22,492 bases of DNA from a virus (lineage: Duplodnaviria; Heunggongvirae; Uroviricota; Caudoviricetes). Shown piece after piece: positions 1,285-22,492 of this stretch (its first letter is position 1; every line of letters starts with the position of its first letter). The translations under genes and the position numbers were made by a program. Location: IMG/VR virus record IMGVR_UViG_2671180963_000005, one strand, 5' to 3'. The notes below the pieces were generated by a model. That model had not been told where the DNA came from. It did no database searches and saw nothing but the letters and a program-made list of their open reading frames with translations.

Positions 1285-1309
1285 AGGTTGCTCCGGGCTA
1301 TGAAATAGA

Positions 1310-3335: not shown

Positions 3336-3349
3336 AGTTATATTTGAAT

Positions 3350-3853: not shown

Positions 3854-4458
3854 GCTACCCGCTTAGCAACAGTTTTTATCTTTATTGATGTTTGATTCAT
3901 TTTTGTTTGGGCTGGTGATTTGCTGTCAAATCCCTGATCATCGTTTTCAAATTGTGCTTTTGCTTCAGATTTCCATATAGGTAAAGATTTAGATGATGAG
4001 ACTGTTCTTTCAACTTTGATTTCGCCAGATAATTCCCGTAACCTTTTGAATGCATCAGGAACTTCTGCTGCTAAACGCATCAGTTTATCCATTGCTTCTG
4101 ATTGAATGACATCATCAGATTCATACTTGGAAAATGCCTTAGGCCCCCCACCAAATATAGAGGATGCCTTTTGCTGGGTTATCATCCATACTTCAGTTCT
4201 AATTTTTTTTAATTCTTTTCCTGTTAAAAGTCCATCGATAGACTTTTTGTATTCATTGAAAATTCGTTTGTTTTCTCGTAAATCGACTGGTGTGGCAGTT
4301 TCCGAACCACATTGATCACACACAGAAAACCTTATTGGGAGATTTTTTGTTTCCCCTTTATAAGTAACATCATCATACTCCATCTCCACGGTGAGATGAC
4401 CTACACCACAAACTGGACATATGTTGTTGTTTCTCATATAAAAATCCTCATTTATCAT
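3850..4458 (-). CDS. MqsA-like antitoxin (zinc-ribbon N-domain plus HTH-XRE domain) with ~65-aa C-terminal extension (putative chaperone-addiction tail)
   Basis: CPVCG…CDQCG zinc-binding motifs and HTH region ITQQKASSIFGGGPKAFSKYE matching MqsA LTQKEASEIFGGGVNAFSRYE; protein ~70 aa longer than the 131-aa MqsA; start taken as the ATG at 4456-4458 (a GTG at 4459-4461 is an alternative); abuts the toxin stop. Confidence 0.75.
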   Translation of the reverse strand: MINEDFYMRNNNICPVCGVGHLTVEMEYDDVTYKGETKNLPIRFSVCDQCGSETATPVDLRENKRIFNEYKKSIDGLLTGKELKKIRTEVWMITQQKASSIFGGGPKAFSKYESDDVIQSEAMDKLMRLAAEVPDAFKRLRELSGEIKVERTVSSSKSLPIWKSEAKAQFENDDQGFDSKSPAQTKMNQTSIKIKTVAKRVA

Positions 4459-4461
4459 CAC

Positions 4462-4872
4462 TCAATTAGAGAGATGAAGAGATACTGTAAGCACTACATT
4501 GCCAGTAATGTTTACAAAAAATTTAATGTAGAACTCGTTATTAAGTTCTTTATGCATAGCTTGGCACCAAAATGAGTGCTCAAAGCTATAAGCATCACAA
4601 GCTGCCCATACACCTGGTTTACTGCCTTGACACCATTCTGAACCTAGAAATCTCCCTTTAGTGACTGCTTTTATCACCATAGATTTGATGTCATCTGCAT
4701 CTAAAGAAAGCGATTGAACATCCCTGATACACCGTCTAGTCCAAGGCAGTGTGTCACATTCATCAATCAAATCAATGATATCTAAATAAAGCGGACCACC
4801 TTGAATCTTTCTGTCCTCGCCATCACGGGGAGGAGTTCCCACATATCTGCTAAGAATCATACTTGTTACCAT
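4462..4872 (-). CDS. MqsR-like (RelE-fold) toxin, first gene of the TAC module
   Basis: 136-aa ORF immediately upstream of the MqsA-like gene in toxin-first order as in mqsRA; C-terminal YIKFFVNITGNVVLTVSLH resembles MqsR YLKITVIHDVLIVSFKE; alternative start at ATG 4860. Confidence 0.6.
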   Translation of the reverse strand: MVTSMILSRYVGTPPRDGEDRKIQGGPLYLDIIDLIDECDTLPWTRRCIRDVQSLSLDADDIKSMVIKAVTKGRFLGSEWCQGSKPGVWAACDAYSFEHSFWCQAMHKELNNEFYIKFFVNITGNVVLTVSLHLSN

Positions 4873-4991
4873 TATGGTAAGTCTAGTCTAAAAGCACGTG
4901 CATATTGTTTTTTTGTGCTGTATGTAAGTTACTCGTCGATCTGCAACTGTGAGTCTGGATAGCTTACAAAATAGAGTTGACACGTCCTTCA

Positions 4992-5684
4992 CTACCCATG
5001 CTTCCTATACGTCTGCGGCATGCTTCCGATGACTTTCCCGAAGATGAATACCCGGTTCATCTCGTCTTTCTCGATCGGGTCCCACGGTGAGTAGCTCTTG
5101 TTATCAGAGATAACTAGCAGCTTATCCTTCATCATTTGCAGGCGCTTTACATGGGCTGTGTCGTCATACAGAAACGCATAGATACCATCACCGTCGAAAG
5201 ATTTAACCGTGATATCAACGAACAGAAGATCACCTGGTTCGATCGTTCCTGACATGCTGTCACCGCGTACGTTAATGATGCGGATATTTTCTGCCTTCCT
5301 ACCATCGAACATGTGACGAGCATCGTCAAACGAGTACTCAACCGAGCGTAGAACTTCTACAAACTCACGGTTGATGACTCCCGGCCCGGCACTGACTTCT
5401 ATATCAAGAACGTCAATTTTGAAGTATTTTGAATGGCTGACAGCAGGCTTCCCTGATTGTTGACCGTCATTTCTCATCGGGCCTATGCCTGATGAGAGCC
5501 ATTCTGTTCGAACACCCAATGCATTAGCTATTTCAACAATTTTTGTTGAGCCGCGAGCGTTGCCGCTTGTCAGTCTCCAGATTGTGGGTTGAGCTACGCC
5601 AGACGCCTTTGCAAGAGCGCCTTGAGACATTCCAGATTGTTCCATCGCTAGGTTTAAGCGATCAGCAAGAGTTTCTTTTTTCAT
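4992..5684 (-). CDS. CI-like prophage repressor (HTH-XRE N-domain plus LexA/S24 peptidase C-domain)
   Basis: HTH MSQGALAKASGVAQPTIWRL; S24 motifs GDSM and K-R; divergent to a Cro-like gene; first ATG at 5684 (ORF track extends to a TTG at 5720); likely a leaderless or short-leader mRNA as for lambda cI. Confidence 0.8.
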   Translation of the reverse strand: MKKETLADRLNLAMEQSGMSQGALAKASGVAQPTIWRLTSGNARGSTKIVEIANALGVRTEWLSSGIGPMRNDGQQSGKPAVSHSKYFKIDVLDIEVSAGPGVINREFVEVLRSVEYSFDDARHMFDGRKAENIRIINVRGDSMSGTIEPGDLLFVDITVKSFDGDGIYAFLYDDTAHVKRLQMMKDKLLVISDNKSYSPWDPIEKDEMNRVFIFGKVIGSMPQTYRKHG

Positions 5685-5794
5685 AAGTTTTAATTTATAC
5701 GCTTGCGTATTGATGGTCAAAACACGTTTTGCTATTGCTTGGATTAATACGCATTGCTATTATTCATTCATTGCAATACCAATAGGAATTGATA
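5685..5794. promoter_or_regulatory. Divergent cI/cro promoter-operator region (OR-like): inverted repeat ATACGC-tt-GCGTAT at 5697-5710; TTGCTATT motifs at 5729-5736 and 5754-5761
   Basis: Perfect 6-bp inverted repeat with 2-bp spacer; repeated motifs shared with the 3141-3181 region; lies between divergently transcribed repressor and Cro-like genes. Confidence 0.6.
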
Positions 5795-6022
5795 ATGACA
5801 AATCAAACCATTCAACTCGCAATCAGTATTACAGGTAGTCAAAAACGACTGGCAGATCTATGCGGTGTAGCCCAACCCACAGTTTGGCGTTGGCTACACG
5901 GTGGCGGAATTGATGCCCGCTATGTAATGAAAATTGTCTCAGCCACTGGTGGAAAGATTAAACCAGCAGATATTCGTCCCGACCTCGCACCATTGTTTAA
6001 CGCGAGTAATTCTGCCGCCTAA
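5795..6022 (+). CDS. Cro/YdaS-like HTH regulator
   Basis: 75-aa ORF with HTH (QKRLADLCGVAQPTVWRW); SD AGGAA 6 nt upstream of the ATG at 5795; divergent from the repressor. Confidence 0.7.
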   Translation: MTNQTIQLAISITGSQKRLADLCGVAQPTVWRWLHGGGIDARYVMKIVSATGGKIKPADIRPDLAPLFNASNSAA

Positions 6023-6046
6023 ACTGCGGCGTTAACTGATAAGGCA

Positions 6047-6592
6047 ATGACTATGCAACCACTTACATACCAACAGACTAGCGGATTTAGCCCGACTGCG
6101 GTGATAAATCGTTCTCAAACAAAACAGGCGCCAGGCCACGAAAAAATCCGTGATGCCGTTCGCGCCTGGTCGGCTGCAGATAATCAGGATGTTGTTGCCG
6201 CACTCATTGTGAATGAGTATCGGGAGCAGGGCGGCGGCACCATCGATTTCCCTGATGATGTCAGCCGTGCACGCCAGAAGCTGTTCCGCTTCCTCGATAA
6301 CAAATTCGATTCTGAAAAATACCGAAATAACGTGCGTGAACTGACCCCGGCAATTCTGGCGGTACTACCGCTGGAATATCGCGGCCACCTGGTTGAGCAG
6401 GATAGCTACATGGCTCGGCTGGCTGAAATGGAAAAGGAACTCAGTGAGGCAAAACAGGCTGTCATTCTCAACGCACCACGCCACCAGAAACTGAAGGAGA
6501 TGAGTGAAGGCATTGTGTCGATGTTTCGTGTGGACCCGGATTTGGCTGGTCCACTGATGGCGATGGTCACCACCATGCTGGGGGCAATATGA
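6047..6592 (+). CDS. YdaT-like protein (CII-position regulator of Rac-type immunity regions)
   Basis: Central region IVNEYREQGGG…ELTPAILAVLPLEYRGHLVEQDS resembles Rac YdaT as remembered; located in the cII position between cro-like and O. Confidence 0.55.
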   Translation: MTMQPLTYQQTSGFSPTAVINRSQTKQAPGHEKIRDAVRAWSAADNQDVVAALIVNEYREQGGGTIDFPDDVSRARQKLFRFLDNKFDSEKYRNNVRELTPAILAVLPLEYRGHLVEQDSYMARLAEMEKELSEAKQAVILNAPRHQKLKEMSEGIVSMFRVDPDLAGPLMAMVTTMLGAI

Positions 6593-6678
6593 CAGGTTCG
6601 GAAATGGCGAAAGCCGGTCTGCGCGAACAGAACCGACTTTCAGGTGCAAATCGTAACACACTCATTGCGGGAGGAATT

Positions 6679-7608
6679 ATGGCAAACACTGCTGAGATAT
6701 TCAATTTTCCAGTGCCGGATGTGGCACAAAAGGAGCGGCGCGTGGCAGATCTCGACGATGGTTATACGCGCATTGCAAATGAGTTGCTGGAAGCTGTGAT
6801 GCTGGCCGGATTAACACAGCACCAGCTTCTGGTCTTCCTGGCTGTCATGCGCAAAACATATGGCTTTAATAAAAGACTGGATTGGGTGAGCAACGAGCAA
6901 CTTTCCGAATTGACCGGGATATTGCCGCACAAGTGTTCTGCTGCAAAAAGCGTTCTGGTAAAGCGTGGGATTCTTATTCAGAGCGGGCGGAATATCGGCA
7001 TTAATAATGTGGTCAGTGAATGGTCAACATTACCCGAATCAGGTAAGAAAAATAAAGTTTACCTGAAAGAGGTAAATTTACCTGAATCAGGTAAAAAAAG
7101 TTTACCCAAATCAGGTAAAGGCGTTTACCCGAATCAGGTAAACACAAAAGACAAACTAACAAAAGACAATATAAAACCTTTTTCGTCCGAGAATTCTGGC
7201 GAATCCTCTGACCAACCAGAAAACGATCTTCCTGTGGTGAAACCGGATGCTGCAATTCAGAGCGGCAGCAAGTGGGGGACAGCAGAAGACCTGACCGCCG
7301 CAGAGTGGATGTTTGACATGGTGAAGACCATCGCGCCATCAGCCAGAAAACCGAATTTTGCAGGGTGGGCTAACGATATCCGCCTGATGCGTGAACGTGA
7401 CGGACGTAACCACCGCGACATGTGCGTGCTGTTCCGCTGGGCATGCCAGGACAACTTCTGGTCCGGTAACGTGCTAAGTCCGGCCAAACTCCGCGACAAG
7501 TGGACCCAGCTCGAAATCAACCGAAACAAGCAACAGGCTGGCGTGACAGCCGGCAAACCAAAACTCGACCTGACGAACACTGACTGGATTTACGGGGTGG
7601 AGCTATGA
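6679..7608 (+). CDS. O: Replication initiator O (hybrid: divergent iteron-binding N-domain, lambda-like P-interacting C-domain)
   Basis: N-terminus aligns with the lambda O start (…VADLDDGY…); C-terminal ~130 aa match lambda O; SD GGGAGG before the ATG at 6679 (an in-frame ATG at 6589 overlapping the upstream stop is an alternative start); iterons inside the gene. Confidence 0.85.
   Translation: MANTAEIFNFPVPDVAQKERRVADLDDGYTRIANELLEAVMLAGLTQHQLLVFLAVMRKTYGFNKRLDWVSNEQLSELTGILPHKCSAAKSVLVKRGILIQSGRNIGINNVVSEWSTLPESGKKNKVYLKEVNLPESGKKSLPKSGKGVYPNQVNTKDKLTKDNIKPFSSENSGESSDQPENDLPVVKPDAAIQSGSKWGTAEDLTAAEWMFDMVKTIAPSARKPNFAGWANDIRLMRERDGRNHRDMCVLFRWACQDNFWSGNVLSPAKLRDKWTQLEINRNKQQAGVTAGKPKLDLTNTDWIYGVEL
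7030..7141. repeat. Replication origin iterons: five copies of TTACC(C/T)(G/A)A(A)(T/A)(C/G)AGGTAA at 7030, 7059, 7078, 7102 and 7125, followed by an A-rich tract (7142-7195)
   Basis: Direct repeats seen in sequence, each internally palindromic (TTACC…GGTAA), inside the O gene and encoding the LPESGKK repeats; same architecture as ori-lambda. Confidence 0.85.
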
Positions 7609-8306
7609 AAAACATCGCCGCACAGATGGTTAACTTTGACTGTGAGCAGATGCGCCGGATCGCCAACAACATGCCGGAACAGTACGACGAAAAGCCACAG
7701 GTACAGCAGGTAGCGCAGATCATCAACGGTGTGTTCAGCCAGTTACTGGCAACTTTCCCGGCGAGCCTGGCTAACCGTGACCAGAATGAACTGAACGAAA
7801 TCCGCCGCCAGTGGGTGCTGGCTTTTCGGGAAAACGGGATCACCACAATGGAACAGGTTAACGCTGGAATGCGCGTAGCCCGTCGGCAGAATCGACCATT
7901 CCTGCCATCACCCGGGCAGTTTGTCGCCTGGTGCCGGGAAGAAGCATCTGTTAACGCCGGGCTGCCAAACGTCAGCGAGCTGGTTGATATGGTTTACGAG
8001 TATTGCCGGAAGCGTGGCCTGTATCCGGATGCAGAGTCTTATCCGTGGAAATCGAACGCGCATTACTGGTTGGTTACCAACTTGTACCAGAACATGCGGG
8101 CCAATGCGCTGACTGACGCGGAATTACGGCGCAAGGCTGCCGATGAACTGACCTGTATGACAGCGCGAATTAACCGTGGTGAGACGATACCTGAACCAGT
8201 AAAACAACTTCCTGTTATGGGCGGTAGACCTCTAAATCGTGCACAGGCTCTGGCGAAGATCGCAGAAATTAAAGCTAAGTTCGGACTGAAAGGAGCAAGT
8301 GTATGA
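7605..8306 (+). CDS. P: Replication protein P (DnaB helicase loader)
   Basis: 233 aa, near-identical to lambda P as remembered (MKNIAAQMVNFD…AKFGLKGASV); ATGA overlap with the O stop. Confidence 0.95.
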   Translation: MKNIAAQMVNFDCEQMRRIANNMPEQYDEKPQVQQVAQIINGVFSQLLATFPASLANRDQNELNEIRRQWVLAFRENGITTMEQVNAGMRVARRQNRPFLPSPGQFVAWCREEASVNAGLPNVSELVDMVYEYCRKRGLYPDAESYPWKSNAHYWLVTNLYQNMRANALTDAELRRKAADELTCMTARINRGETIPEPVKQLPVMGGRPLNRAQALAKIAEIKAKFGLKGASV

Positions 8307-8605
8307 CGGGCAAAGAGGCAATTATTCATTACCTGGGGACGCATAAGAGCTTCTGTGCACAGGACGTTGCCGCGGTAACAGGCGCAACCGTAACCAGCAT
8401 AAATCAGGCTGCGGCTAAAATGGCGCGGGCAGGAATCCTGGTCGTTGATGGTAAGGTCTGGCGAACGGTGTATTACCGGTTCGCTACCAGAGAAGAACGG
8501 GAAGGAAAGGTGAGCACGAATCTGATTTTTAAGGAGTGTCGCCAGAGTGCCGCGATGAAACGGGTATTGAGGGTATATAAAAGAACATCAATGGGAACAC
8601 AATGA
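8303..8605 (+). CDS. ren: Ren (Rex-exclusion relief protein)
   Basis: 100 aa, close match to lambda Ren (MTGKEAIIHYLGTH…ATREEREGK…); ATGA overlap with the P stop. Confidence 0.9.
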   Translation: MTGKEAIIHYLGTHKSFCAQDVAAVTGATVTSINQAAAKMARAGILVVDGKVWRTVYYRFATREEREGKVSTNLIFKECRQSAAMKRVLRVYKRTSMGTQ

Positions 8606-8672
8606 TGAAACAGGTGAGTTGAGTTCAAACTGTAGTACAATTCTCTCCAGTTTGAACAGGAAAGAATATGCT

Positions 8673-9005
8673 ATGAATCCTTATATTTATCTTGGTGGTG
8701 CAATACTTGCAGAGGTCATTGGTACAACCTTAATGAAGTTTTCAGAAGGTTTTACACGGTTATGGCCATCTGTTGGTACAATTATTTGTTATTGTGCATC
8801 ATTCTGGTTATTAGCTCAGACGCTGGCTTATATTCCTACAGGGATTGCTTATGCTATCTGGTCAGGAGTCGGTATTGTCCTGATTAGCTTACTATCATGG
8901 GGATTTTTCGGCCAACGGTTGGACCTGCCAGCCATTATAGGCATGATGTTGATTTGTGCCGGTGTGTTGGTTATTAATTTATTGTCACGAAGCACACCAC
9001 ATTAA
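8673..9005 (+). CDS. emrE: EmrE small multidrug resistance efflux transporter
   Basis: 110 aa from the ATG at 8673, recognised as E. coli EmrE (MNPYIYLGGAILAEVIGTTLMKFSEGF… with Glu14); four TM helices; the ORF-track start at 8619 is an upstream extension. Confidence 0.95.
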   Translation: MNPYIYLGGAILAEVIGTTLMKFSEGFTRLWPSVGTIICYCASFWLLAQTLAYIPTGIAYAIWSGVGIVLISLLSWGFFGQRLDLPAIIGMMLICAGVLVINLLSRSTPH

Positions 9006-9260
9006 AAATAATTTGTTTTTAAACGACTAAAATATGGAGGCTCGTATATTTATATGGGCCTCGTTTTATGCTTTTTGTTAATGTCTTTAGTTTTTATTCA
9101 TTCTTTTGTGCTTTCAAGATTATGGTGTAAGAAAATTGCAATACGATTATTGTTGTATATTCAAGATAATGTGACCTTAATTGTCTTTTTAAATAAAAAT
9201 TAAACAAAAATTATATCCCACCACTAAGGTTTATAAAAGCATACGTTAGCAGGTGTCACC

Positions 9261-10787
9261 ATGAAAAAAGCCATAGCATATATGCGATTTTCATCACCAG
9301 GTCAGATGTCTGGTGATTCATTAAACCGCCAGAGAAGGCTTATTACTGAATGGCTAAAGGTAAATAGTGATTATTACCTTGATACCGTAACGTATGAAGA
9401 TTTGGGGTTAAGCGCATTCAATGGAAAGCATGCACAATCAGGAGCTTTTTCGGAATTTTTAGATGCTATAGAACATGGTTATATATTGCCAGGGACTACA
9501 TTGTTAGTTGAAAGTCTGGACAGACTTTCAAGAGAAAAAGTCGGTGAGGCGATTGAGCGTCTGAAATTGATTTTGAATCACGGTATTGATGTTATAACTC
9601 TTTGCGATAATACAGTCTATAATATTGACTCATTGAATGAGCCATATTCATTAATAAAAGCCATACTTATAGCACAAAGGGCAAATGAAGAAAGCGAGAT
9701 AAAGTCAAGTCGGGTTAAATTATCATGGAAGAAAAAACGGCAGGATGCACTGGAGTCAGGCACGATTATGACGGCGTCTTGTCCGAGATGGCTCTCATTG
9801 GATGACAAAAGAACGGCTTTTGTTCCAGACCCCGACAGGGTGAAAACTATTGAGCTAATTTTTAAACTCAGGATGGAAAGGCGCTCATTGAATGCAATAG
9901 CCAAGTATTTAAATGATCATGCTGTAAAGAATTTCTCAGGAAAAGAAAGTGCATGGGGACCTTCTGTAATTGAAAAATTATTAGCGAATAAAGCTCTGAT
10001 AGGTATATGCGTACCTTCATATCGTGCAAGAGGTAAAGGAATAAGTGAAATCGCTGGCTATTATCCCAGAGTCATATCAGATGATTTGTTTTACGCTGTG
10101 CAGGAAATTCGGTTGGCACCTTTTGGTATTAGCAATAGTAGCAAAAATCCTATGTTGATAAATCTACTTCGAACAGTTATGAAGTGCGAGGCTTGTGGTA
10201 ATACCATGATTGTTCATGCGGTATCTGGAAGTTTGCATGGCTATTATGTTTGTCCGATGAGAAGACTGCATCGATGTGACAGGCCATCAATAAAGAGAGA
10301 TTTGGTTGATTATAATATCATTAATGAGTTGCTTTTTAATTGTAGTAAAATCCAACCAGTTGAAAACAAGAAAGATGCTAATGAAACTTTAGAGTTGAAA
10401 ATTATTGAGCTCCAGATGAAAATTAATAATTTAATTGCTGCATTATCTGTTGCGCCTGAAGTTACCGCTATAGCAGAAAAAATCAGAGTATTAGATAAGG
10501 AATTACGAAGGGCTTCTGTATCATTAAAAACTTTGAAGAGTAAAGCGGTGAGTTCACTTGGTGATTTTCATGCTATTGACTTAACCAGTAAAAATGGGCG
10601 AGAGCTATGTCGTACACTTGCCTATAAAACATTCGAAAAAATCATAATCAATACAGATAATAAAACCTGTGATATCTATTTTATGAATGGCATTGTTTTT
10701 AAACACTATCCTTTAATGAAAACAATATCCGCCCAGCAGGCGATAAGTACTCTCAAATATATGGTTGATGGTGAGGTTTATTTTTGA
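9261..10787 (+). CDS. ybcK: YbcK-like large serine recombinase
   Basis: 508 aa; N-terminal resolvase catalytic domain (YMRFSSPGQ); matches DLP12 YbcK as remembered; AT-rich; follows emrE as in DLP12. Confidence 0.9.
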   Translation: MKKAIAYMRFSSPGQMSGDSLNRQRRLITEWLKVNSDYYLDTVTYEDLGLSAFNGKHAQSGAFSEFLDAIEHGYILPGTTLLVESLDRLSREKVGEAIERLKLILNHGIDVITLCDNTVYNIDSLNEPYSLIKAILIAQRANEESEIKSSRVKLSWKKKRQDALESGTIMTASCPRWLSLDDKRTAFVPDPDRVKTIELIFKLRMERRSLNAIAKYLNDHAVKNFSGKESAWGPSVIEKLLANKALIGICVPSYRARGKGISEIAGYYPRVISDDLFYAVQEIRLAPFGISNSSKNPMLINLLRTVMKCEACGNTMIVHAVSGSLHGYYVCPMRRLHRCDRPSIKRDLVDYNIINELLFNCSKIQPVENKKDANETLELKIIELQMKINNLIAALSVAPEVTAIAEKIRVLDKELRRASVSLKTLKSKAVSSLGDFHAIDLTSKNGRELCRTLAYKTFEKIIINTDNKTCDIYFMNGIVFKHYPLMKTISAQQAISTLKYMVDGEVYF

Positions 10788-10898
10788 GTAATAATCACTT
10801 TTTCAACCGTGCTATAGTAAGAAAGTTAGGTAAGTACAATAAAATTATCTATCCTGAACGAAGCGTCCTGAGCTATGGTTTTACTATAGGGACTGCCA

Positions 10899-11198
10899 AT
10901 GGATGCTGGCGTTCTCGTTCTAGCAGTTCAACAATACCCAATCACAAAACAATTCACTGATAACAAACTTTGTGCACGTGCTTGGTTATGGCGAGCAGGT
11001 GATGTGATGTTAACTGCCTGCCAGAACGTTACTCCACTACTTCAGGTTGCGGAGCACCGCGAAGCCGGCCGCTTTACTTCTATCGAGCAAGAATATCCCC
11101 AGATACTCAACAGAGCGCGAGCAATCCTCGCCAGAGAAACGGCACATGTAAAATTCCAGCCGTGGCTGGATGATAAGTGGAGTCGAGTGTTACCATAA
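10899..11198 (+). CDS. Hypothetical protein (99 aa), unknown function
   Basis: ORF followed by a terminator hairpin; no recognised homology; start uncertain. Confidence 0.35.
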   Translation: MDAGVLVLAVQQYPITKQFTDNKLCARAWLWRAGDVMLTACQNVTPLLQVAEHREAGRFTSIEQEYPQILNRARAILARETAHVKFQPWLDDKWSRVLP

Positions 11199-11240
11199 TT
11201 CCGTCAGAATCTGTTCCAATAAAGTCACTAGTTAGAAATA

Positions 11241-11279
11241 CTGCCAGCATTCTACGATGACGGAAGTGCTGGCATTTTT
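11241..11279 (+). terminator. Rho-independent terminator
   Basis: Stem TGCCAGCA (11241-11248) / TGCTGGCA (11266-11273) followed by TTTTTT, just downstream of the 99-aa ORF. Confidence 0.6.
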
Positions 11280-11456
11280 TGGGTAATATGCGAGTCCATT
11301 TCATAAAATACGGGTGCTGTAAACTGGACGATATAATCTAAAATATACCATTACCAGTAGCGTTCAAATCGCTATGTGCCGATACGGATAAAATTATATT
11401 GATTGTGCACATACCTTATTGGATATTACTGAGGGGTATTTATATAAGGTGTAACG

Positions 11457-11966
11457 ATGATGTGGAACTTTGACAGTGCCGACTTAAGTGCAATAGCAGC
11501 AGGTATTTCTGCGTTTGGCACATTAGCCGCAGCGGGGTCGGCGCTTGCAAGTTGGTACACGTCAAAAAAAGCGCTGCAGCTACAAAATAGAGTTTACCTT
11601 TATGAGTCTTTAAAGGCTTGCGCTGAGAGAGCCAATTCATCAGCTAAAGATAAGCGCGGATCTGAATGGAGCGTTAATGATGCAGCGGATATCATCAGGT
11701 GCCTAGTACGGGCGATGGAGATCATCAAGCAGGATAGCCAGCAGAAAGAAGGTAATCAGGCATTAATGTTGAAACAGTACTTTGTTAATCTGCTAATAAT
11801 GGAACTGTACGAGGAAGTTCATAACGGTGATGCGGCTGATTCTGTTTTTAAAAGTACGGAACCTACACAAGTACTTGATAACTTATGGAGCAAATGGCAG
11901 GAGGCTATAGCTTTTTTTGATATTTGGAATTACCCAGTTGCGACTGAGGAAGACTTGGCAGACTAA
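11457..11966 (+). CDS. Hypothetical membrane-anchored protein (169 aa): N-terminal hydrophobic helix, helical acidic C-domain
   Basis: SD AAGGTG upstream of the ATG; predicted TM segment AIAAGISAFGTLAAAGSALASW; no homologue recognised; sits in the nin-region cargo position. Confidence 0.55.
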   Translation: MMWNFDSADLSAIAAGISAFGTLAAAGSALASWYTSKKALQLQNRVYLYESLKACAERANSSAKDKRGSEWSVNDAADIIRCLVRAMEIIKQDSQQKEGNQALMLKQYFVNLLIMELYEEVHNGDAADSVFKSTEPTQVLDNLWSKWQEAIAFFDIWNYPVATEEDLAD

Positions 11967-12160
11967 TTTTCAGCACATTTGATTTCCAATAATCAACCAG
12001 CCATAATCATGCCATTGGGGCCTGAACAACTCCGGTGACTTCTGCGCTAAACGGGGACGTTTATGCGCACATACAATCCAACCTCTCTTCTCCATTCACA
12101 GATGCAGAAATGCACCTGCGATATTTTGCATCCAGCGTTTGATCTCTGCGGAGGTGAAGC

Positions 12161-12378
12161 GTGAACCTCCCACAAGATGGTATCAAATTGCATCGCGGTA
12201 ACTTCACCGCTATCGGTCGGCAGATCCAGCCTTATCTGGAGGACGGCAAATGCTTTCGCATGGTGCTTAAACCGTGGCGCGAGAGACGCAGTCTTTCCCA
12301 GAATGCACTCAGCCACATGTGGTACAGCGAAATCAGTGAATACCTCATCAGCAAGGGTAAAACGTTCGCCACTCCAGC
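12161..12378 (+). pseudogene. NinB/YbcN-family protein, N-terminal fragment only (truncated at a deletion junction)
   Basis: GTG start with strong SD GGAGGTG; about 70 codons resembling the DLP12 YbcN/NinB N-terminus (…RSLSQNALSHMWYSEISEYL…), then the frame runs into J-derived sequence and stops. Confidence 0.5.
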
Positions 12379-12381
12379 TTG

Positions 12382-13228
12382 GGTATCCGCACCGGCGGGC
12401 GCGTGCTGGCGGTAAACAGCCAGACCCGGACGCTGACGCTCGACCGTGAAATCACGCTGCCATCTTCCGGCACCACGCTGATAAGCCTGGTTGACGGGCA
12501 GGGGAGTCCGGTCAGCGTGGAGGTTCAGTCCGTCACCGACGGCGTGAAGGTGAAAGTGAGCCGTGTTCCTGACGGCGTTGCTGAATACAGCGTATGGGGG
12601 CTGAAGCTGCCGACGTTGCGCCAGCGCCTGTTCCGCTGCGTGAGTATCCGTGAGAACGACGACGGCACGTATGCCATCACCGCCGTGCAGCATGTACCGG
12701 AAAAAGAGGCCATCGTGGATATTGAGAACACCCCTGACGGCATGCAGAGTCAGGTGCTGCTGGCGGCGGACAGGATTGCGATGGTTAATCCTGCGAATGG
12801 CAACACAAAACCGATGTTTGTTGGTCAGGGCGATCAGATATTCATGAACGACGTGTTCCTGAAACGCCTGACGGCCCCCACCATTACCAGCGGTGGAAAT
12901 CCACCGGCATTTTCCCTGACACCGGACGGAAAGCTGACCGCTAAAAATGCGGATATCAGTGGCAGTGTGAATGCGAACGCCGGGACGCTCAACAATGTCA
13001 CGGTAAATGAAAACTGTACGATTAAGGGCATGCTGGAGGCGACTCAGGTCAGAGGTGACTTCGTTAAAGCTGTATCCAAATCATTCCCGAAACAGGCTGG
13101 TACGTGGGGTAATACGGAAACACCAAACGGGACGGTTACAGTCACCATCAGCGATGATCATAACTTTGACCGTCAAATCATTATTCCGCCCATTATCTTT
13201 AACGGAATAGCGTATAGCGATCCGGGAA
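12382..13228 (+). pseudogene. J: Tail tip/host-specificity protein J, C-terminal remnant (N-terminal ~700 codons missing, internal gap, C-terminal end replaced)
   Basis: Translation matches lambda J segments [30 protein letters not shown]…[29 protein letters not shown] and …[54 protein letters not shown]…DDH.FDRQI; no start codon or upstream J sequence. Confidence 0.8.
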
Positions 13229-16078
13229 GTGGTAATAACCGATGCTGCAGGCTCAGCACGTGCCGCCAGCACGTCAGCCGGACAGGCCGCGTCGTCGGCT
13301 CAGTCAGCGTCTTCCAGCGCAGGAACGGCATCGACAAAGGCCCGTGAAGCAGCAAAAAGTGCTGCTGCAGAGTCCTCAAAAAGCGCGGCAGCTACCAGTG
13401 CCGGTGCGGCGAAAACGTCAGAAACGAATGCGGCAGCGTCACAACAATCAGCAGCCACTTCTGCATCCGCCGCGACCACGAAGGCGTCAGAAGCAGCCAC
13501 CTCAGCCCGGGATGCGGCGGCCTCAAAAGAGGCAGCGAAATCATCAGAAACGAACGCATCATCAAGCGCCAGTAGTGCCGCTTCCTCGGCAACGGCGGCA
13601 GGCAATTCCGCGAAGGCGGCAAAGACGTCTGAGACAAACGCCAGGTCTTCTGAAACGGCAGCGGGACAGAGCGCCTCGGCTGCGGCAGGCTCAAAAACAG
13701 CGGCTGCGTCGTCTGCCAGTGCCGCGTCAACAAGTGCCGGGCAGGCCTCAGCCAGTGCCACCGCCGCCGGAAAATCGGCAGAAAGCGCCGCATCGTCTGC
13801 TTCAACAGCCACAACGAAGGCTGGCGAAGCCGCTGAACAGGCCAGCGCAGCAGCGAGGTCTGCATCCGCAGCGAAGACATCCGAAACGAACGCGAAAGCC
13901 TCGGAAACCAGTGCAGAATCCTCAAAAATGGCAGCTGCATCGTCCGCCAGTTCGGCGGCGTCATCGGCATCATCTGCGTCTGCTTCAAAAGATGAGGCGA
14001 GCAGACAGGCATCAGCAGCGAAAGGCAGCGCCACGACAGCATCCACGAAGGCGACAGAGGCAGCTGGCAGTGCGACGGCGGCATCTCAGAGCAAAACTAC
14101 TGCTGAATCCGCTGCGACCCGTGCGGAAGCTGCTGCTGATCGTGCTGAAGAGATTGCCGGTGCAGTTGCGATGGAAGACGCAAGCCTTACAACTAAAGGT
14201 GTTGTGAAACTTAGCAGTGCTGTTGATAGCACCAGTGAATCGCTGGCCGCAACGCCAAAAGCAGTTAAAGCAGCCAATGACAATGCGAATAGCAGGGTGC
14301 CATCTAACCGAAAAGTTAACGGAAAAGCACTGACTGCGGATATAACATTAACGCCGAAAGATATTGGTACTTTAAATTCAGTAACGATGTCTTTCTCTGG
14401 CGGGGCTGGGTGGTTCAAACTGGCTACGGTTACCATGCCACAAGCGAGTTCCATCGTTTACATCGCATTGATTGGTGGCGCTGGTTACAACGTCGGTTCC
14501 CCACATCAGGCAGGCATTTCAGAACTGGTTCTACGAGCAGGCAATGGAAACCCCAAAGGAATTACCGGGGCTTTGTGGAAGCGTACAGCCGTCGGATTAA
14601 CGAATTTCGCCTGGATCAACACATCCGGCGATACATATGATATTTACGTTGAGATTGGCAATTATGCGACGAGTGTAAATATCCATTGGGATTGTACTGC
14701 AAATGCGTCAGTTTCTGTTTATACCTCGCCAACATATTCAGCGAGTAAGCCTTCCAGCGTTACCTATGGTGTTGTTTATACGATGTATAGCTCACATCAG
14801 AAACCTACACCATCAGATATTGGAGCACTGCCAACAACCGGAGGAACAGTTTCAGGTCCGTTGTCTGTTACAGGTGGATTAACTGGTTCATTGAATGGTA
14901 ATGCAAGTACAGCCACGAAATTGCAGACGGCAAGATCTATCGGTGGAGTTGTTTTCGACGGTTCTGCAAATATTAACCTTCCAGGTGTAAACACTACGGG
15001 TAATCAGAACACCACTGGTAATGCTGCAACTGCTACAAAACTCCAGACTGCAAGAAAAATATCCGGTGTTCCATTTGATGGTTCCAAAGATATTACTTTA
15101 ACCGCCGCGCATGTGGCTGCTTTTGCCAGAAGGGCAACGGATACATATGCCGATGCGGATGGTGGCGTTCCCTGGAATGCCGAATCAGGCGCTTACAATG
15201 TCACCCGCTCTGGCGACAGCTATATTCTGGTTAACTTCTATACCGGAGTCGGAAGTTGCCGGACCCTGCAGATGAAGGCGCATTACAGAAATGGTGGTCT
15301 GTTCTACCGTTCTTCAAGAGACGGTTATGGTTTTGAGGAAGGCTGGGCAGAAGTTTATACCTCGAAAAATCTTCCACCAGAAAGCTACCCAGTCGGCGCA
15401 CCAATCCCGTGGCCATCAGATACCGTTCCGTCTGGTTATGCCCTGATGCAGGGGCAGACTTTTGACAAATCTGCTTACCCGAAACTTGCAGCCGCTTATC
15501 CGTCAGGCGTGATCCCTGATATGCGTGGCTGGACGATTAAGGGCAAACCTGCCAGTGGTCGGGCCGTATTGTCTCAGGAACAGGACGGCATTAAATCGCA
15601 CACCCACAGCGCCAGCGCATCCAGTACGGATTTGGGGACGAAAACCACATCGTCGTTTGATTACGGAACCAAATCCACGAATAACACCGGGGCGCATACC
15701 CATAGTATTAGCGGGACCGCAAATAGTGCCGGTGCGCACCAACACAAGAGTTCCGGTGCATTTGGTGGCACGAACACGAGCATTTTCCCTAATGGTTATA
15801 CCGCGATTTCAAATCTAAGCGCGGGGATTATGAGCACAACAAGCGGTAGTGGCCAGACTCGTAATGCAGGGAAGACATCATCAGATGGTGCTCATACCCA
15901 CTCGCTGTCCGGCACTGCTGCAAGCGCAGGCGCACATGCACATACTGTCGGTATTGGTGCTCATACGCACTCCGTTGCGATTGGCTCACATGGACACACC
16001 ATCACCGTTAACGCTGCTGGTAACGCGGAAAACACCGTCAAAAACATCGCATTTAACTACATTGTGAGGCTTGCATAA
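13229..16078 (+). CDS. stf: Side tail fibre protein Stf, 5'-truncated relative to lambda Stf (possibly non-functional)
   Basis: 949-aa ORF from a GTG; homology to lambda Stf begins at its residue ~128 (VTDA…[17 protein letters not shown]); Ala/Ser/Thr-rich repeats (AKTSETNA); C-terminus with His-rich GAH(T/A)HS repeats and …[25 protein letters not shown] as in lambda. Confidence 0.8.
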
Positions 16079-16662
16079 TGGCATTCAGAATGAGTGAACA
16101 ACCACGGACCATAAAAATTTATAATCTGCTGGCCGGAACTAATGAATTTATTGGTGAAGGTGACGCATATATTCCGCCTCATACAGGTCTGCCAGCAAAC
16201 AGTACCTATATTGCACCGCCAGATATTCCGGTAGGCTTCGTGGCTGTTTTCAACAGTGATGAGGCATCGTGGCATCTCGTTGAAGATCATCGGGGAAAAA
16301 CCGTCTATGACGTGGCTTCCGGCGACTCGTTATTTATTTCTGAACTCGGACCTCTACCGGAAAATATCACCTGGTTATCCCCGGAAGGGGAGTTTCAGAA
16401 GTGGAACGGCACAGCCTGGGTGAAGGATACGGAAGCAGAAAAACTGTTCCGGATCCGGGAGGCGGAAGAAACAAAAAACAGCCTGATGCAGGTAGCCAGT
16501 GAGCATATTGCCCCGCTTCAGGATGCTGCAGATCTGGAAATCGCAACGGAGGAAGAAACCTCGTTGCTTGAAGCCTGGAAGAAGTATCGGGTGTTGCTGA
16601 ATCGTGTTGATACATCAACTGCACCTGATATTGAGTGGCCTGCAATCCCTGTTATGGAATAA
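16078..16662 (+). CDS. tfa: Tail fibre assembly protein Tfa
   Basis: 194 aa, near-identical to lambda Tfa ([24 protein letters not shown]…); start overlaps the stf stop (TAATG). Confidence 0.95.
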
Positions 16663-17022
16663 TAGTTTTGTGATATGCCGCAGAAACGTTATATGCAATA
16701 ACGTGCTGCGGTTGGCTGATGTACTTTCGAGAGTGTATTGAATAATTTCCAACCGTCATTAATTTTATTTATTTTTTGTATGAGAGGATTTGAACCTCCG
16801 AGCCTCGACACCTTATGACAACGCGATATTGCCTTGATGACCGCCATGTGCCAAAATAACCAATTGATAAATAAGTTGATTTTAATTGGTTGGAAGCAAG
16901 TCAGGTCAAATTCAGCATTCCGCTCTCTGTATCGGATAGTTAAATTTTTCTATAACTGATAGTAATATGTTAAAACTCACACAGATAAATTATCATTGCT
17001 CAACAAGTATAATGGAGTTCCC

Positions 17023-18978
17023 GTGGATACAGCAGAACATGATGGCAAGTTTGCTTGGGCTAGTTTTTATGAGGCTTTTGCCAACGCGTTACTGACTTGG
17101 CGAAATCGTAGAGATGAATTAGTCAAAGGTATTCATCTAATTGCCTCGGGTGTGGAAGGAATGTCCCATCTGCAGGACAAATCTATTATGGGAGAGATCT
17201 TTCCCTTAAAAGACATTTGTCCGTTTACTACTATGGGCTTGTTCAATCGTAACTTGACCGACAGCAATCGCAAAATTATTGCTGCCAAGCTAGCGAATTT
17301 GTTGGGCGTGAACGAACCGATTCCTGACTCCTTTGCCGGAATCCCTCTGTTGAATAACCAAAAATCTTGGTTCTTTGGTTATGAAAAGTCACGCGACCCT
17401 AATGACATTGAATGCTTGTGGGAAATGTTCTCACAGGCAATGATCTTTGCGGATAACCAGAATACTAACTCTGCAGACTTCACTGCCGCATATGACATCG
17501 CTTCTACAGTAATGAATGTCGGTTGGAATCTCACCATGGGGTTGTACTGGACCCGTCCTTGGTTCTACCCCACTTTAGATAGCCAGTCGCAGTATTACAT
17601 TCAGACAGTGTTAAACATTAAGATCATTAAAAACGGGGCAAAAGGTCGCTGTAGTGGACAAAGTTACCTGAGTCTTATGCGGGCGCTGAACGAGGTCTTT
17701 ACCCAACCAAACTATCCGGTTCATTCTTTCCCAGAACTTTCCTTATCAGCGTGGAATACAGATCTTAGCCAGTCTAAAGATGAGGTGGCAAATAGAACGT
17801 GGAAAGCCTCTTTACTGAATAAAATTAAGGCGTTATGCCTGAAAAAAAATGGCCCTTATTTCACTGCTTCGGAGTTGGAAGAAAACTACTTGGACGTATT
17901 CAAGGTAGAGCATCCTGAGAGCAAAACTGTTACAAGCTCAATCTACTTTTATCTACAGAAACTATGCAATGATGATGAGTTAAAGTCCCTCGAGTCCGGA
18001 AATTATGAATACCTGAATTTTGAGAAAAACGAATCCCAGACGATAACTGAGGAAACTGTCGAAGAGAGTGCGCTGTTGCCAAAACTCACCCACGTTCCTT
18101 ATGACATCAGTCATCTGGTGCAGGATGGCTGTTTCTTGGAAGAGGCTAAGATCCAACTCACACTTCAGCGCCTGATCGACAAGAAAAACCTGATATTACA
18201 AGGACCACCCGGAACTGGAAAAACTTGGTTAGCGCGACGTCTGGCGTACTGCTTGATGGGAGAAAAAGCACCTGAGCGTATTAGCGCGGTGCAATTTCAC
18301 CCGAACCTCTCTTACGAAGACTTTATTCGAGGCTGGCGTCCAGGTAAAGAAGGGCAATTGACGCTAATTGATGGACCTTTTGTAAATGCAATCAAAACTG
18401 CAGTCAATAATCCTACCTCGAAATATGTGGTGATAATTGAAGAGATTAATCGTGGCAATCCGGCGCAAATCTTCGGTGAAACACTCACGTTGATGGAAGC
18501 AGATAAACGCACGCCGACTGAGGCATTATCTCTTTCCTATCCTAAAAATGCTGATGAAAAAATATACATTCCTGAGAATCTATATATCATCGGTACGATG
18601 AATATTGCAGACCGCTCACTCGCACTACTTGACCTAGCGCTGCGCCGTCGTTTCGCGTTTATCGATCTAAAGCCAGCTTTTAATGACGCGTGGAGAAACT
18701 GGGTAAATTATAATTACGCAATTGATTTTGACATGTTAGCATTCATCAAATCTCGACTGACGGTATTAAACGATATGCTGGCAAAAGATGTTACCTTAGG
18801 ACCACAGTTTTGTATCGGTCACAGCTATGTCACCCCAGCTATCGGCCAAAAAATCAACGATGCCCAGGCTTGGTATGAACAAGTCGTTGATACAGAGATC
18901 TGCCCTTTGCTCGCCGAATATTGGTTCGATGCTCCAAATAAAGTCGATGAAGCCAGAAAAGTGTTATTAGCAAAATGA
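17023..18978 (+). CDS. McrB-like AAA+ GTPase subunit of a type IV (modification-dependent) restriction system, with a long unrecognised N-terminal domain (~380 aa)
   Basis: C-terminal half aligns with E. coli McrB GTPase motifs: GPPGTGKT (Walker A), VVIIEEINRGN, NIADRS, LRRRF; start taken as the GTG at 17023 after SD GGAG (ORF track begins at a TTG at 16996); N-terminal region unlike K-12 McrB-N. Confidence 0.85.
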   Translation: MDTAEHDGKFAWASFYEAFANALLTWRNRRDELVKGIHLIASGVEGMSHLQDKSIMGEIFPLKDICPFTTMGLFNRNLTDSNRKIIAAKLANLLGVNEPIPDSFAGIPLLNNQKSWFFGYEKSRDPNDIECLWEMFSQAMIFADNQNTNSADFTAAYDIASTVMNVGWNLTMGLYWTRPWFYPTLDSQSQYYIQTVLNIKIIKNGAKGRCSGQSYLSLMRALNEVFTQPNYPVHSFPELSLSAWNTDLSQSKDEVANRTWKASLLNKIKALCLKKNGPYFTASELEENYLDVFKVEHPESKTVTSSIYFYLQKLCNDDELKSLESGNYEYLNFEKNESQTITEETVEESALLPKLTHVPYDISHLVQDGCFLEEAKIQLTLQRLIDKKNLILQGPPGTGKTWLARRLAYCLMGEKAPERISAVQFHPNLSYEDFIRGWRPGKEGQLTLIDGPFVNAIKTAVNNPTSKYVVIIEEINRGNPAQIFGETLTLMEADKRTPTEALSLSYPKNADEKIYIPENLYIIGTMNIADRSLALLDLALRRRFAFIDLKPAFNDAWRNWVNYNYAIDFDMLAFIKSRLTVLNDMLAKDVTLGPQFCIGHSYVTPAIGQKINDAQAWYEQVVDTEICPLLAEYWFDAPNKVDEARKVLLAK

Positions 18979-20096
18979 CGACAATAACCGGGAGTGAGCA
19001 ACATACAGCATCACGTATTCCCATGCGAAATATCTGGATGCTGATGCTGTACGCTTCAGATCTGTTTCGCCAGTTAGGACGCAATCAGATCGCAGTAGAA
19101 GATAACCCAGCAGAAATCCCCGACCTGGTGGCGACAATCCTCCTTCATGAGATTACGCTGCGCCGACGTCGCAATTTAAATATGGGATACCAAACTTGTC
19201 ATGCGGCCCTGAACCGGGTGAGAGGGCGCATTGACATACTGTATACTGCCAGTCATCAACTGCTGGAACGGGGACAGGTTGCCTGCCATTTTCAAGACAT
19301 AACCCTCAACACCCCCCGAAATCGCTATGTTCGCTGTGCGTTAGAACGTCTGGCCTCAATCATAGTGAAACCGTCTTTGGCGGCAGATTGCCATTTTATG
19401 GCAATATCACTTCGCCGTGAGGGGATAAATGGAGGATATCCTGCCCCCCGCGAATTACCCTCAGTGTGGCGTTTTGGACGCCATGATGCCGCAGATAAAC
19501 CGATGGTCGATGCCGCACGATTAGCTTTTGAACTGCTGATGCCGACCGAAGATCAAGGCCAATATCTTTTACCTGCGCCCTCAAATAACCTTTACTGGAT
19601 GAGAAGACTATTTGAAAAAGGTATCGCTGGCTTATATCGTGTACACCTTGCCAAAACAACTTGGCAGGTCTCTGCAGGGAAAGAGCTGAAATGGGCGTTG
19701 AGCGATCAAAGTGCAGGTAGTGCAGAGATTTTCCCGACAATGAAGTCAGACATTATTCTGGAACACAAGACTGCCCAGCGGCGTATTATTATCGATACCA
19801 AATTTAATTCGATTCTGACAAAGGGTTGGCATCGGGAGCAATCACTACGTAATGGCTATATTTATCAGCTATATACCTACCTTAGAACACAGGAGAACAA
19901 GACGGATCCGCTTTCGCTCAATGCCGCTGGTCTTCTACTTCATCCAGCTGTTGGCTATATGCTTAATGAGTATGTTGTCACTCAGGGACATAAGATCCAT
20001 TTTGCTACAGTAGATATGACGGTAGATGCTAAAGCAATTAAAAAACAATTGCTGGCAATAGCCCATGATTGTGCAGGAGTCGCGGTTGATGACTAA
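18975..20096 (+). CDS. McrC-like nuclease subunit (PD-(D/E)xK) of the type IV restriction system
   Basis: 373 aa; ATGA overlap with the mcrB-like stop; N-terminal IPMRNIWMLMLYA resembles McrC IPVRNIYYMLTYA; C-terminal PD…D-x-K candidates (KSDIILEH…IIIDTKF). Confidence 0.8.
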   Translation: MTTITGSEQHTASRIPMRNIWMLMLYASDLFRQLGRNQIAVEDNPAEIPDLVATILLHEITLRRRRNLNMGYQTCHAALNRVRGRIDILYTASHQLLERGQVACHFQDITLNTPRNRYVRCALERLASIIVKPSLAADCHFMAISLRREGINGGYPAPRELPSVWRFGRHDAADKPMVDAARLAFELLMPTEDQGQYLLPAPSNNLYWMRRLFEKGIAGLYRVHLAKTTWQVSAGKELKWALSDQSAGSAEIFPTMKSDIILEHKTAQRRIIIDTKFNSILTKGWHREQSLRNGYIYQLYTYLRTQENKTDPLSLNAAGLLLHPAVGYMLNEYVVTQGHKIHFATVDMTVDAKAIKKQLLAIAHDCAGVAVDD

Positions 20097-20796
20097 CCAT
20101 CCTATAAGGCACTGGCTGTAATATAATCAATAGTTTCAATTAAGTAGCTGTTATCCGTGCTTAGTCATCATATGACGCACCACGGTCTAATTTTCCTGCT
20201 CATACATTGATATATCCTTGTCGTGCCCGGAAAGTCGCAGTCCACTATGAGGTATACCGATTGCCAGCACCAAAAGCTTCTTTGTGATTATTATATCGGG
20301 GAATGCCTATTTTTTTAGTGACAATATCAGATAGCAATTAATAAGCGGTGCCGGTAATGGATGTTATGTTTAATGTATAGACACAGCCATCATAAACTAA
20401 ACGTCTGTTGTTCGCTCATAACCGACATTTATCTCAGTTATGGAGGATAATTATGTATGCAGATAATGGGGCAGACAGTCGTGGAGTAAACAAGGTTTTG
20501 CACTGCTTGGCGGCATCGTTATCTTATTTTTAATTATGTGCCTCTTAACATAAGTTGGGACAAAACAGAGACACATAAGGTCTCACAAAGGTCTGCAAGG
20601 CCTCACATGTATTGAGATGTTAATAAAATGTAGACTTGTAATTTGGATATAAATGGTAGAGAAAACCTTTCCCCAAAATAAAAACGAACGTCAATGAAAT
20701 CAAACGGTTGAATAAAGTTTATTTTGGCTAATAAAAAGACAATAAAATAATTTTTATCGTTAAATATCAATGACTTGAATTCATGGTTTTTATATA

Positions 20797-20961
20797 CTGC
20801 TGCGCCATATGGGTTGGACTGAAGCGGCTGACCTGATTGTTAAAGGTATGGAAGGCGCAATCAATGCCAAGACCGTAACTTATGACTTCGAACGTCTGAT
20901 GGAAGGCGCTAAGCTGCTGAAATGTTCAGAGTTTGGTGAAGCGATCATCGAAAACATGTAA
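20797..20961 (+). pseudogene. icd: 3'-terminal fragment of icd (isocitrate dehydrogenase; last ~52 codons plus stop), phage-borne attP-type copy as in e14/phage 21
   Basis: Translates to [54 protein letters not shown], matching the Icd C-terminus with D-to-E substitutions; no upstream icd sequence. Confidence 0.85.
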
Positions 20962-20983
20962 TCTCTCCATGTGTTAAATATTG

Positions 20984-21016
20984 AAACGGGCGTATAACAC
21001 GCCCGTTGTTTTATTT
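20984..21016 (+). terminator. icd-type rho-independent terminator
   Basis: Perfect 9-bp stem AACGGGCGT / ACGCCCGTT with a 5-nt loop followed by GTTTTATTT, 23 bp after the icd-fragment stop. Confidence 0.8.
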
Positions 21017-21063
21017 ATGTGGATATTATTAATAGCATATCGAGCATATTTATATGAAGCCCA

Positions 21064-21387
21064 TTACTTGAGCCCATATGGGCATATTTTTATAATGCAA
21101 CTATTATGTAAACATTTATTTGTTATTTTGCTTTCTCCTGGAGGACACTCTTGACTGCTTTTGAGTAAACTCCATAAATCCTTGTTGAATGGTGCGATGT
21201 GATAAATAGTAATAGGATATTCTTTATCCTTAAGGATAATACCAGACTTAACCGGTGTAAATATACTGCCAGGAGGGAGAAATATAGTAGATTGATACCA
21301 GATGATCATTTTCATATTACCCCATATGGCTGAAAAAGATATACCACATGTAGGTTGAATTACCGTGTCAATTACTATCCACTTCAT
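21064..21387 (-). CDS. Hypothetical protein (107 aa), AT-rich, unknown function
   Basis: ORF only; no clear SD; no recognised homology. Confidence 0.25.
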
Positions 21388-22087
21388 TTGTTATGTCTTA
21401 TCCCACGGTATTTAATATGGTTCATTAGGATGTTTATTTCTTGATTTTGCATATGAGTATATTACCCCCCCCCTCAAAAAAATAAATTAATTAAAATGAT
21501 GGCTTATATAAAATAAAATTTAAAGCAAGGAATCTCAATGGATGTTAAACAAAATGAGATTTTGTGAAAGCAATAAATTATTGACTTCGTTTTAGATTTG
21601 TTTAGCTATAATGTTATACATTCAAATGACTGAACATCCTGTAATTAAAACATAGCCTTTATGCTACTTTGTGCCAATTTGCTAAACATTATGGTTGCCT
21701 TTTTATATAACGATAATAATGAATATAAGCATGACATGAGAATAAGGTTTCAATTTTTGAGTTATATAGGAATGATTTAACCTGTTCCTGGCTAAAATAC
21801 ATATAACCGGATGATGACTAAACCAAAATACATGTGCGTTAAGTATTGAAACGGACGTGTGGCACGGCCGTTGTTTTTATAAATATGTTAACCGTTATAA
21901 AATAACGTATCAAAAGTCAAGTGATCACATTTCAAATATCAAGTTGATAGTATTAGTCTGGTGATTATTTATGGGTGACAATAAAAAGACAGTATTAATC
22001 ATCCATAGAGATAGTCTCTGCACTTTTATTTCCATTATGCTAATGCCTTACTGAATTATGAAGCATTTCTTAAGTATCCAACTTTAG

Positions 22088-22492
22088 CTAGATTAATGGT
22101 TTATTATTTTCTACATCTTCAATATATAAAAGCGTATTATCAATGGCGTAGTAACTGCGTTTGTTATGATTAACATCAGTAACCCACCGGAAAACGCCCG
22201 CACCTGCCAGTGTTGAACAGTATTCCCGAAGTGTAGATTTTCCGCAAATATGAAGCAATGCGGCCTCTTTTATTTTAGCAGGGTTCTTGGTCGTACTAAC
22301 TTTTAACAGGTTCCTGGTTCCTCTTAATAACAAAACCGTATCATCGTGAGTAATAATTCTGATGTTATCCGTAGCCAGATAATAAATGTAATGTGCAATA
22401 CGGTGATGTTTTAATTCTGAATAAAACCAGGAGAAGTTTTGCTCTTTTCTCACTTGCTCAAACATCTTTTGAAAAACAACGACCTGATCCAT
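22088..22492 (-). CDS. Hypothetical protein (at least 134 aa); start codon at the window edge, may extend beyond it
   Basis: ORF with Met at the last window codon; no recognised homology. Confidence 0.3.
   Translation of the reverse strand: MDQVVVFQKMFEQVRKEQNFSWFYSELKHHRIAHYIYYLATDNIRIITHDDTVLLLRGTRNLLKVSTTKNPAKIKEAALLHICGKSTLREYCSTLAGAGVFRWVTDVNHNKRSYYAIDNTLLYIEDVENNKPLI

Follow-up and report, generated by a model that had tools for sequence, protein, structure and literature searches.

An icd 3' fragment beside McrBC-like genes in a viral contig is very probably the host half of a phage-21-type attR

Background

The closest described counterpart of the locus studied here is the right end of the e14 element in Escherichia coli K-12, where the gene order in MG1655 is icd, e14, icdC, iraM, ymgK, ymgL, ycgX and bluR. 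The e14 element supplies the 3' end of icd, and its excision restores the gene with the replacement of Asp by Glu (PMC6379469, citing Hill et al. 1989). Also close is the attP of phage 21 (OL657228), shared with the phages 4A7, 1W, 3W, ev017, ev207 and Perceval, in which a P arm carrying the arm-type integrase site CTTTCCCCAAAA is followed by the core TGCTGCGCCA and by a phage copy of the icd end with its terminator. An attR at icd, with an icdC-type displaced end, and a phage-21-type arm have both long been known. At ybhC, the integration site of lambda, the corresponding signature is the lambda core lying between the host gene and a lambda-type integrase frame. Lambda is also the classical case of aberrant excision, in which flanking host DNA is picked up, as in the gal and bio transducing phages.

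If phage 21, e14 and lambda are a guide, the recombination at icd would proceed as follows. Beside int, the phage would carry a terminator preceded by a copy of the final ~53 codons of icd. The integrase would recombine attP with attB at TGCTGCGCCA, joining the phage icd copy to the body of the host gene as attL, so that icd would stay functional by means of the phage-supplied end while the original end of the host gene and its terminator would lie silent at attR. Excision by Int and Xis would be expected to rejoin that silent fragment to icd.

Here we analyse a stretch of 22,492 nucleotides of tailed-phage DNA (IMG/VR record IMGVR_UViG_2671180963_000005), referred to below as the window, in which a 3' fragment of icd lies near the right end and a lambda attachment core near the left. 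An earlier note made from the sequence had taken the fragment for the substitute icd end of a second, unused attachment region of the e14 or phage 21 type, preserved inside a hybrid prophage. We find that the fragment is the native host end, that the window leaves the prophage at this point and enters the chromosome, and that the two ends of the window correspond to two different prophages of a single complete genome.

Results

An open frame spans window positions 20797-20961, and homology to icd begins at T20798, giving a fragment at 20798-20961 on the plus strand whose orthologue in K-12 is the pseudogene icdC. It comprises 53 icd codons and the stop, not the last 52 as the earlier note had counted, and has neither a start codon nor a ribosome binding site of its own; RefSeq labels it in matching genomes as an incomplete isocitrate dehydrogenase pseudogene. 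The native intrinsic terminator of icd follows at 20985-21016 (+), with a hairpin (20985-21007) made up of a perfect 9-bp stem with 6 G-C pairs and a 5-nt loop, and then a T-run, GTTTTATTTA. The arrangement lies after a pair of McrBC-like genes, as the earlier note had observed, with about 700 bp between the end of McrC (20096) and the fragment. The terminator probably stops rightward transcription that leaves the McrBC and prophage region before it reaches the convergent gene iraM.

Compared with K-12 icdC, terminator and flank included, window positions 20798-21016 are identical at 219/219 positions, and the same count is obtained against the intact icd 3' end of the e14-cured K-12 strain AG100. 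On sequence grounds a match of this extent to icd is far beyond chance. In contrast, 28 of 217 positions differ between the fragment and the icd end that K-12 has from e14, and 16 of 217 between the fragment and the prophage-derived icd end in the lysogen L003. The encoded protein ends agree with this division: the native end and the present fragment carry Glu at both of the diagnostic positions (E...E), the e14-derived K-12 end carries Asp (D...D), and the prophage-derived end reads E...D...IIKNM. Two Glu residues thus do distinguish the fragment from the C-terminus of K-12 Icd, as had been noticed, but they are not substitutions. Because native ends are E...E and excision of e14 gives Asp-to-Glu (PMC6379469), the Glu form is the native state and the Asp codons of the K-12 reference gene are e14-derived; the native allele looks substituted because the reference Icd C-terminus is itself a phage-derived variant. 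When the icd body was joined to the fragment and iraM as a synthetic empty site, 3,016 of the 5,426 complete E. coli genomes had the whole in one uninterrupted piece.

The alignment of the region to icd, e14 and the phage 21 attP, which the earlier note had proposed as a check, resolves it into a phage-21-type P arm, a core and the native icd end. The P arm of attR extends over 20543-20797 (+) and aligns with the phage 21 attP; it contains one copy of the arm-type integrase site CTTTCCCCAAAA, at 20667-20678, the consensus for which was taken from the phage 21 record. The common core, TGCTGCGCCA, occupies 20798-20807 (+) and is the point at which the phage arm gives way to host sequence. This 10-bp block is the only one common to the attR of the window, the attL of L003, the attP of phage 21 and the attB of e14-cured K-12 at which the flanks change partner. 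To its left the window aligns with the phage 21 attP and with neither the icd body nor the arm of the e14 attR; to its right the window is the host allele. Against phage 21, 4A7, 1W, 3W, ev017, ev207 and Perceval, all free phages, positions 20543-21014 are 91-94.5% identical, and nothing further left matches. The earlier assignment of the fragment to the integration system of icd-integrating phages, of the phage 21 and e14 type, is upheld.

What follows the terminator separates the window from these phages. The phage 21 attP and the attL of L003 share a common phage allele of the icd end, after whose terminator come three tandem P' arm sites, YYTTCCCCAAAA, and then int and xis; the attL of the lysogen accordingly consists of the icd body, the core, the phage-type end, the three P' sites, and int (380 aa) with xis. 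After the terminator of the window, which follows a host allele, neither the three YYTTCCCCAAAA sites nor int and xis are found, and iraM stands there instead. That gene, the nearest one of the host on the right side of icd, lies at 21064-21387 (-) and is annotated in matching genomes. It is followed on the same strand by the small host genes ymgK (21645-21689) and ymgL (21925-22035), whose coordinates were transferred from L003 with an offset of 7630, and by ycgX (22088-22492), at whose start codon the window ends. The four genes take up the remaining 1.5 kb of the window in the order of K-12, and in e14-cured K-12 they come directly after icd; a matching right flank is also present in ML35, Z1323CEC0003 and Z1323HEC0011. 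The expectation that lit- or int-like genes would begin just to the right of the fragment is therefore contradicted within the window itself. An attR predicts host genes at this place rather than an integrase, and the result is in the main a correction.

Just inside the P arm lie a McrB-like AAA ATPase gene (17023-18978) and a McrC gene (19023-20096), both on the plus strand, a putative defence cargo in the "b-region" position beside att. Precomputed Pfam hits are to DUF8425, AAA_5 and McrB_lid in the 651-aa protein and to McrBC (PF10117) in the 357-aa protein, while in PADLOC the McrB-like protein had only weak REase_II matches and McrC had none. Comparison with the free phages identifies the pair as cargo, since the match to those phages stops at 20543 without any McrBC and phage 21 has sitAB in that position. 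The proximity of putative restriction genes to the icd fragment, likened by the earlier note to mcrA in e14, is borne out, with McrB and McrC in place of mcrA.

The module formed by McrBC, the P arm, the displaced icd end and iraM is contiguous in 288 of the 5,426 complete E. coli genomes, and 496 genomes of that set have the attR junction itself. Every copy of the module whose context was inspected sits at icd, and icd stands at the left end wherever the left end of the prophage was reached. In complete genomes the prophage starts with icd, int (380 aa), xis, DUF4222 and TraR, which is the order of phage 21, and runs through exo, O', P, ren, emrE and ybcK to a nin::J fusion, a tail fibre gene, tfa, the McrB-like gene, McrC, the P arm, the icd fragment and iraM; some copies are reduced further, in the extreme to icd, tfa, McrBC and the displaced icd end. 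The nin::J fusion is seen in the window at ~12385-13347, where the nin region runs straight into the C-terminal portion of a J-like tail-tip gene; the deletion removes Q, lysis, head and tail genes and is common to all the icd-locus copies examined. Two further features belong to this part of the window. A 244-aa ORF at 13300-14034 (-), antisense in the tail-fibre region and matching no Pfam family, is consistently called as a gene elsewhere, and a full-length match to the Rfam family IS009 (RF02111; 214 bits) lies at 16421-16619 (+) in the region of the tail-fibre-assembly gene.

The left end of the window (1-2579, minus strand) is that of another prophage. It holds ybhC (1-1284), the lambda attL core GCTTTTTTATACTAA, an exact 15-bp match at 1331-1345 and the only one in the window, and a reading frame at 1419-2579. 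The earlier identification of this end as a lambda attL at ybhC is confirmed. Its likeness to a lambda-type attL lies in the exact core between ybhC and a lambda-type integrase frame; it differs in that the integrase is replaced N-terminally and that the window has no lambda attR core and no ybhB. The 386-aa "integrase" consists of the N-terminus of Gam and the C-terminal part of a lambda-type Int, an internal deletion having removed xis, exo and bet, and the same fusion is found at ybhC in several complete genomes. Owing to that deletion the Gam::Int arm is unable to excise alone. Between kilR and the repressor, at 3350-4872 (-), are genes for a SecB-like chaperone (167 aa; 3350-3853), an antitoxin of the MqsA family (195 aa) and a 136-aa ORF with no Pfam match, which together look like a toxin-antitoxin-chaperone module; PADLOC had no model for the SecB/MqsA-like cargo and gave nothing informative.

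A cognate attL, with icd body, phage-type end, P' sites, int and xis, is not present at the other end of the window, where ybhC, the lambda core and Gam::Int stand instead. The complete genomes examined do have it, wherever the region retrieved extended to the left end of the prophage. We attribute this mismatch to a join inside a shared lambdoid module, O'-P-ren-emrE-ylcJ-ybcK, at 7371-10796 (+), which was delimited by mismatch maps and an allele table. The module, with emrE, is found at many integration sites and is the substrate of the join. Its emrE gene, for a multidrug efflux protein of the SMR type, lies at 8673-9005 (+) beside ren and ybcK, a grouping also found in DLP12 of K-12.

The two parents are both represented in the complete genome Z1323HEC0011, by a prophage at ybhC with lambda att sites (A) and a prophage at icd (B). 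Window positions 1-7735 show 0 mismatches to A, and positions 15952-22492 show 2 mismatches to B, while the two prophages are ~96% identical to one another over the 3.4-kb module. The passage from A to B takes place between 7655 and 9317 in five switches, with alleles of A at 7383-7655, B at 7736-7826, A at 7949-8596, B at 8678-9126, A at 9212-9300 and B from 9317 onward. There are no private alleles in the module: at each of its ~130 variable sites the window agrees with A or with B. The last switch, from 9300 to 9317, takes place over a run of just 16 identical bases. This is not what a simple path switch in a de Bruijn graph would give; a per-site consensus called over a collapsed repeat would account for it, and so, just as well, would mismatch repair in a real heteroduplex.

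The join is found in 0 of the 5,426 complete genomes, none of which has at least 80% of the window in one place, and a search for a natural identical allele returned no complete genome with the module sequence at more than 99.3% identity. Look-ups of exact proteins (YbcK, the SecB-like protein, McrC, P and the 244-aa ORF) found the proteins widespread and no contig with the join of the window; the sole related contig that they yielded is the draft contig CATRGV010000019.1 (GCA_958309015.1), whose left arm is alike and whose right end is different. A 40-mer across the 9300/9317 switch, sought in IMG/VR, occurs also in 23 contigs with other ybcK alleles at 96-99%, and was dropped as a marker of the hybrid, the allele combination being natural in those alleles. 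A scan of IMG/VR for the attR junction returned two short contigs.

The draft contig is near-clonal with the window, having 0 differences in 1-7735 and 1 in 10708-15396. Within the module, by contrast, 22 sites differ, against 1 in about 10.9 kb outside it. Its module is a seven-switch patchwork of its own, a further switch occurs at 15397 inside the tail-fibre/tfa repeat, and the contig exits through pin, a ynaE-like gene, ydfJ, ydfI, ydfZ, ydfH, ydfG and dcp, which is the flank of the Qin site. It is either a second chimera or the outcome of prophage-mediated inversions in the lineage.

Discussion

We conclude that the icd fragment is very probably the B' half of the attR (P-O-B') of a defective lambdoid prophage of the phage 21 type integrated in icd, because it is identical to the native end, host genes lie to its right, a phage-21-like P arm lies to its left, and P' sites and int are absent. 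There is essentially no counter-evidence, the sole unmet expectation being the cognate attL at the other end of the window. The earlier note read the same fragment as the phage-borne substitute end of an unused attP of the e14 or phage 21 type in a lambda-att prophage, with int or lit genes further right. In its favour, free phages do have a P arm, an icd copy and a terminator in that order, and the arm to the left of the fragment does come from a phage. The fragment, however, has the native and not the phage allele at 219/219 positions, and in place of P' sites, int and xis the genes iraM, ymgK, ymgL and ycgX follow in host order. We give this reading practically no credence, and regard it as already refuted by the right-hand 1.5 kb of the window. 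What survives of the idea of a hybrid with a second, unused attachment region is that the window, as given, is indeed a hybrid; the supposed second region is an attR at the boundary of prophage and chromosome. As the parent element e14 was rejected, since the arm beside the core is phage-21-like and the cargo is McrB/McrC rather than mcrA. The likeness to K-12 at the e14 attR is nevertheless close on the host side (219/219 positions with the terminator, the core position in icd, and iraM-ymgK-ymgL-ycgX) and extends to the genes immediately within the end of the prophage, the type IV restriction gene mcrA in e14 and the putative McrBC-like counterpart here, whereas the phage arm is unrelated, the cargo has two genes and the backbone resembles phage 21 and lambda. 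The phage 21 group differs in its turn by the phage allele followed by three P' sites and int, where the window has the host allele followed by iraM, and by cargo such as sitAB, McrBC being absent from the free phages.

How the left end at ybhC with its lambda attL came to be joined to the right end of the icd-locus prophage is a separate question, and here we consider an assembly chimera through the O-P-ren-emrE-ybcK repeat the probable answer. The grounds for this view include the match of the two arms to separate loci of one genome, the lack of private alleles in the module, and the near-clonal pair of window and draft contig, in which unique sequence is identical, the mosaics differ exactly in the repeats and each follows a separate "impossible" path; a mosaic of this kind is what a collapsed-repeat consensus with wrong repeat resolution produces, but it is not proof. 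A real join, by homologous recombination between the att-lambda and icd prophages within a multi-step rearrangement, would give a hybrid with a lambda attL and a phage-21 attR, by way of two prophage-mediated inversions or of excision and reinsertion of the ybhB...icd segment, and the fragment would still be the native icd end. The switch inside a 3.4-kb module ~96% identical between the prophages speaks for such an event, the patchy tracts, including the 16-bp switch, are compatible with conversion by heteroduplex repair, and the near-clonal draft also links the same left arm to foreign prophage right ends, one of these junctions, from ybhC to the Qin flank, being laid out as an inversion between inverted prophages would leave it. 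In Z1323HEC0011, however, the two loci form direct repeats separated by about 0.46 Mb (their positions in K-12 coordinates being 0.807 and 1.196 Mb), so that a single crossover would delete about 0.39-0.46 Mb with infA, ftsK, lolA, serS, rpsA, msbA, lpxK and kdsB, all reportedly essential in the Keio collection; a simple real deletion was rejected for this reason, as essential genes would go. The absence of the join from all 5,426 complete genomes tells in the same direction, and differences between near-clonal assemblies at 22 sites in the repeat, against 1 in about 10.9 kb outside, would be unexpected for a shared inherited event. A real join is on balance unlikely, though it deserves to be kept in view, and slightly less likely again is its specific form, a relocation of the ~0.4-Mb ybhB-icd segment in one E. 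coli lineage by a series of recombinations among the defective lambdoid prophages resident at att-lambda, icd and Qin. Far less probable still is that an aberrantly excised icd prophage took icd'-iraM-ycgX with it and re-established itself at att-lambda, which would make the host genes a second, phage-borne copy. Capture of flanking DNA is established for lambda, and the window stops before any right-hand junction would be visible, but the prophage is heavily deleted (the Gam::Int and nin::J fusions, no head genes), the window has no second lambda core, and the arrangement is not found a second time at ybhC in any complete genome.

The window and its near-clonal draft contig run between prophage loci by way of shared lambdoid modules, and prophage "hybrids" defined from drafts need confirmation at the level of reads before they are given a biological meaning. 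If the join is real, it documents prophage-mediated relocation of ~0.4 Mb of chromosome, and the attR, for which the window offers neither a partner attL nor a cognate int, would be unusable there; the element would be a cryptic hybrid of a lambda attL and an orphan phage-21 attR with McrBC, which neither integrase could excise. In lying beside att the McrBC cargo resembles mcrA of e14, and such a placement is common, as its occurrence in 288 complete genomes indicates.

Two minor observations concern the icd end itself. In AG100 (NZ_LN832404.1, ~1238750-1238840) an 84-bp tandem duplication lies inside icd, starting at the att core, and the gene is annotated at 1,335 bp rather than 1,251 bp; the duplication may be a scar of imprecise excision or an assembly error. 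In the window, a second copy of the icd terminator is found at 21835-21877 (+), between ymgK and ymgL and ~850 bp downstream of the first, matching it at 36 of 43 nt. A decayed older icd fragment in the ymgK-ymgL region was considered and rejected, coding similarity to icd being absent and the terminator alone duplicated, and the changes on both sides of the stem keep the pairing.
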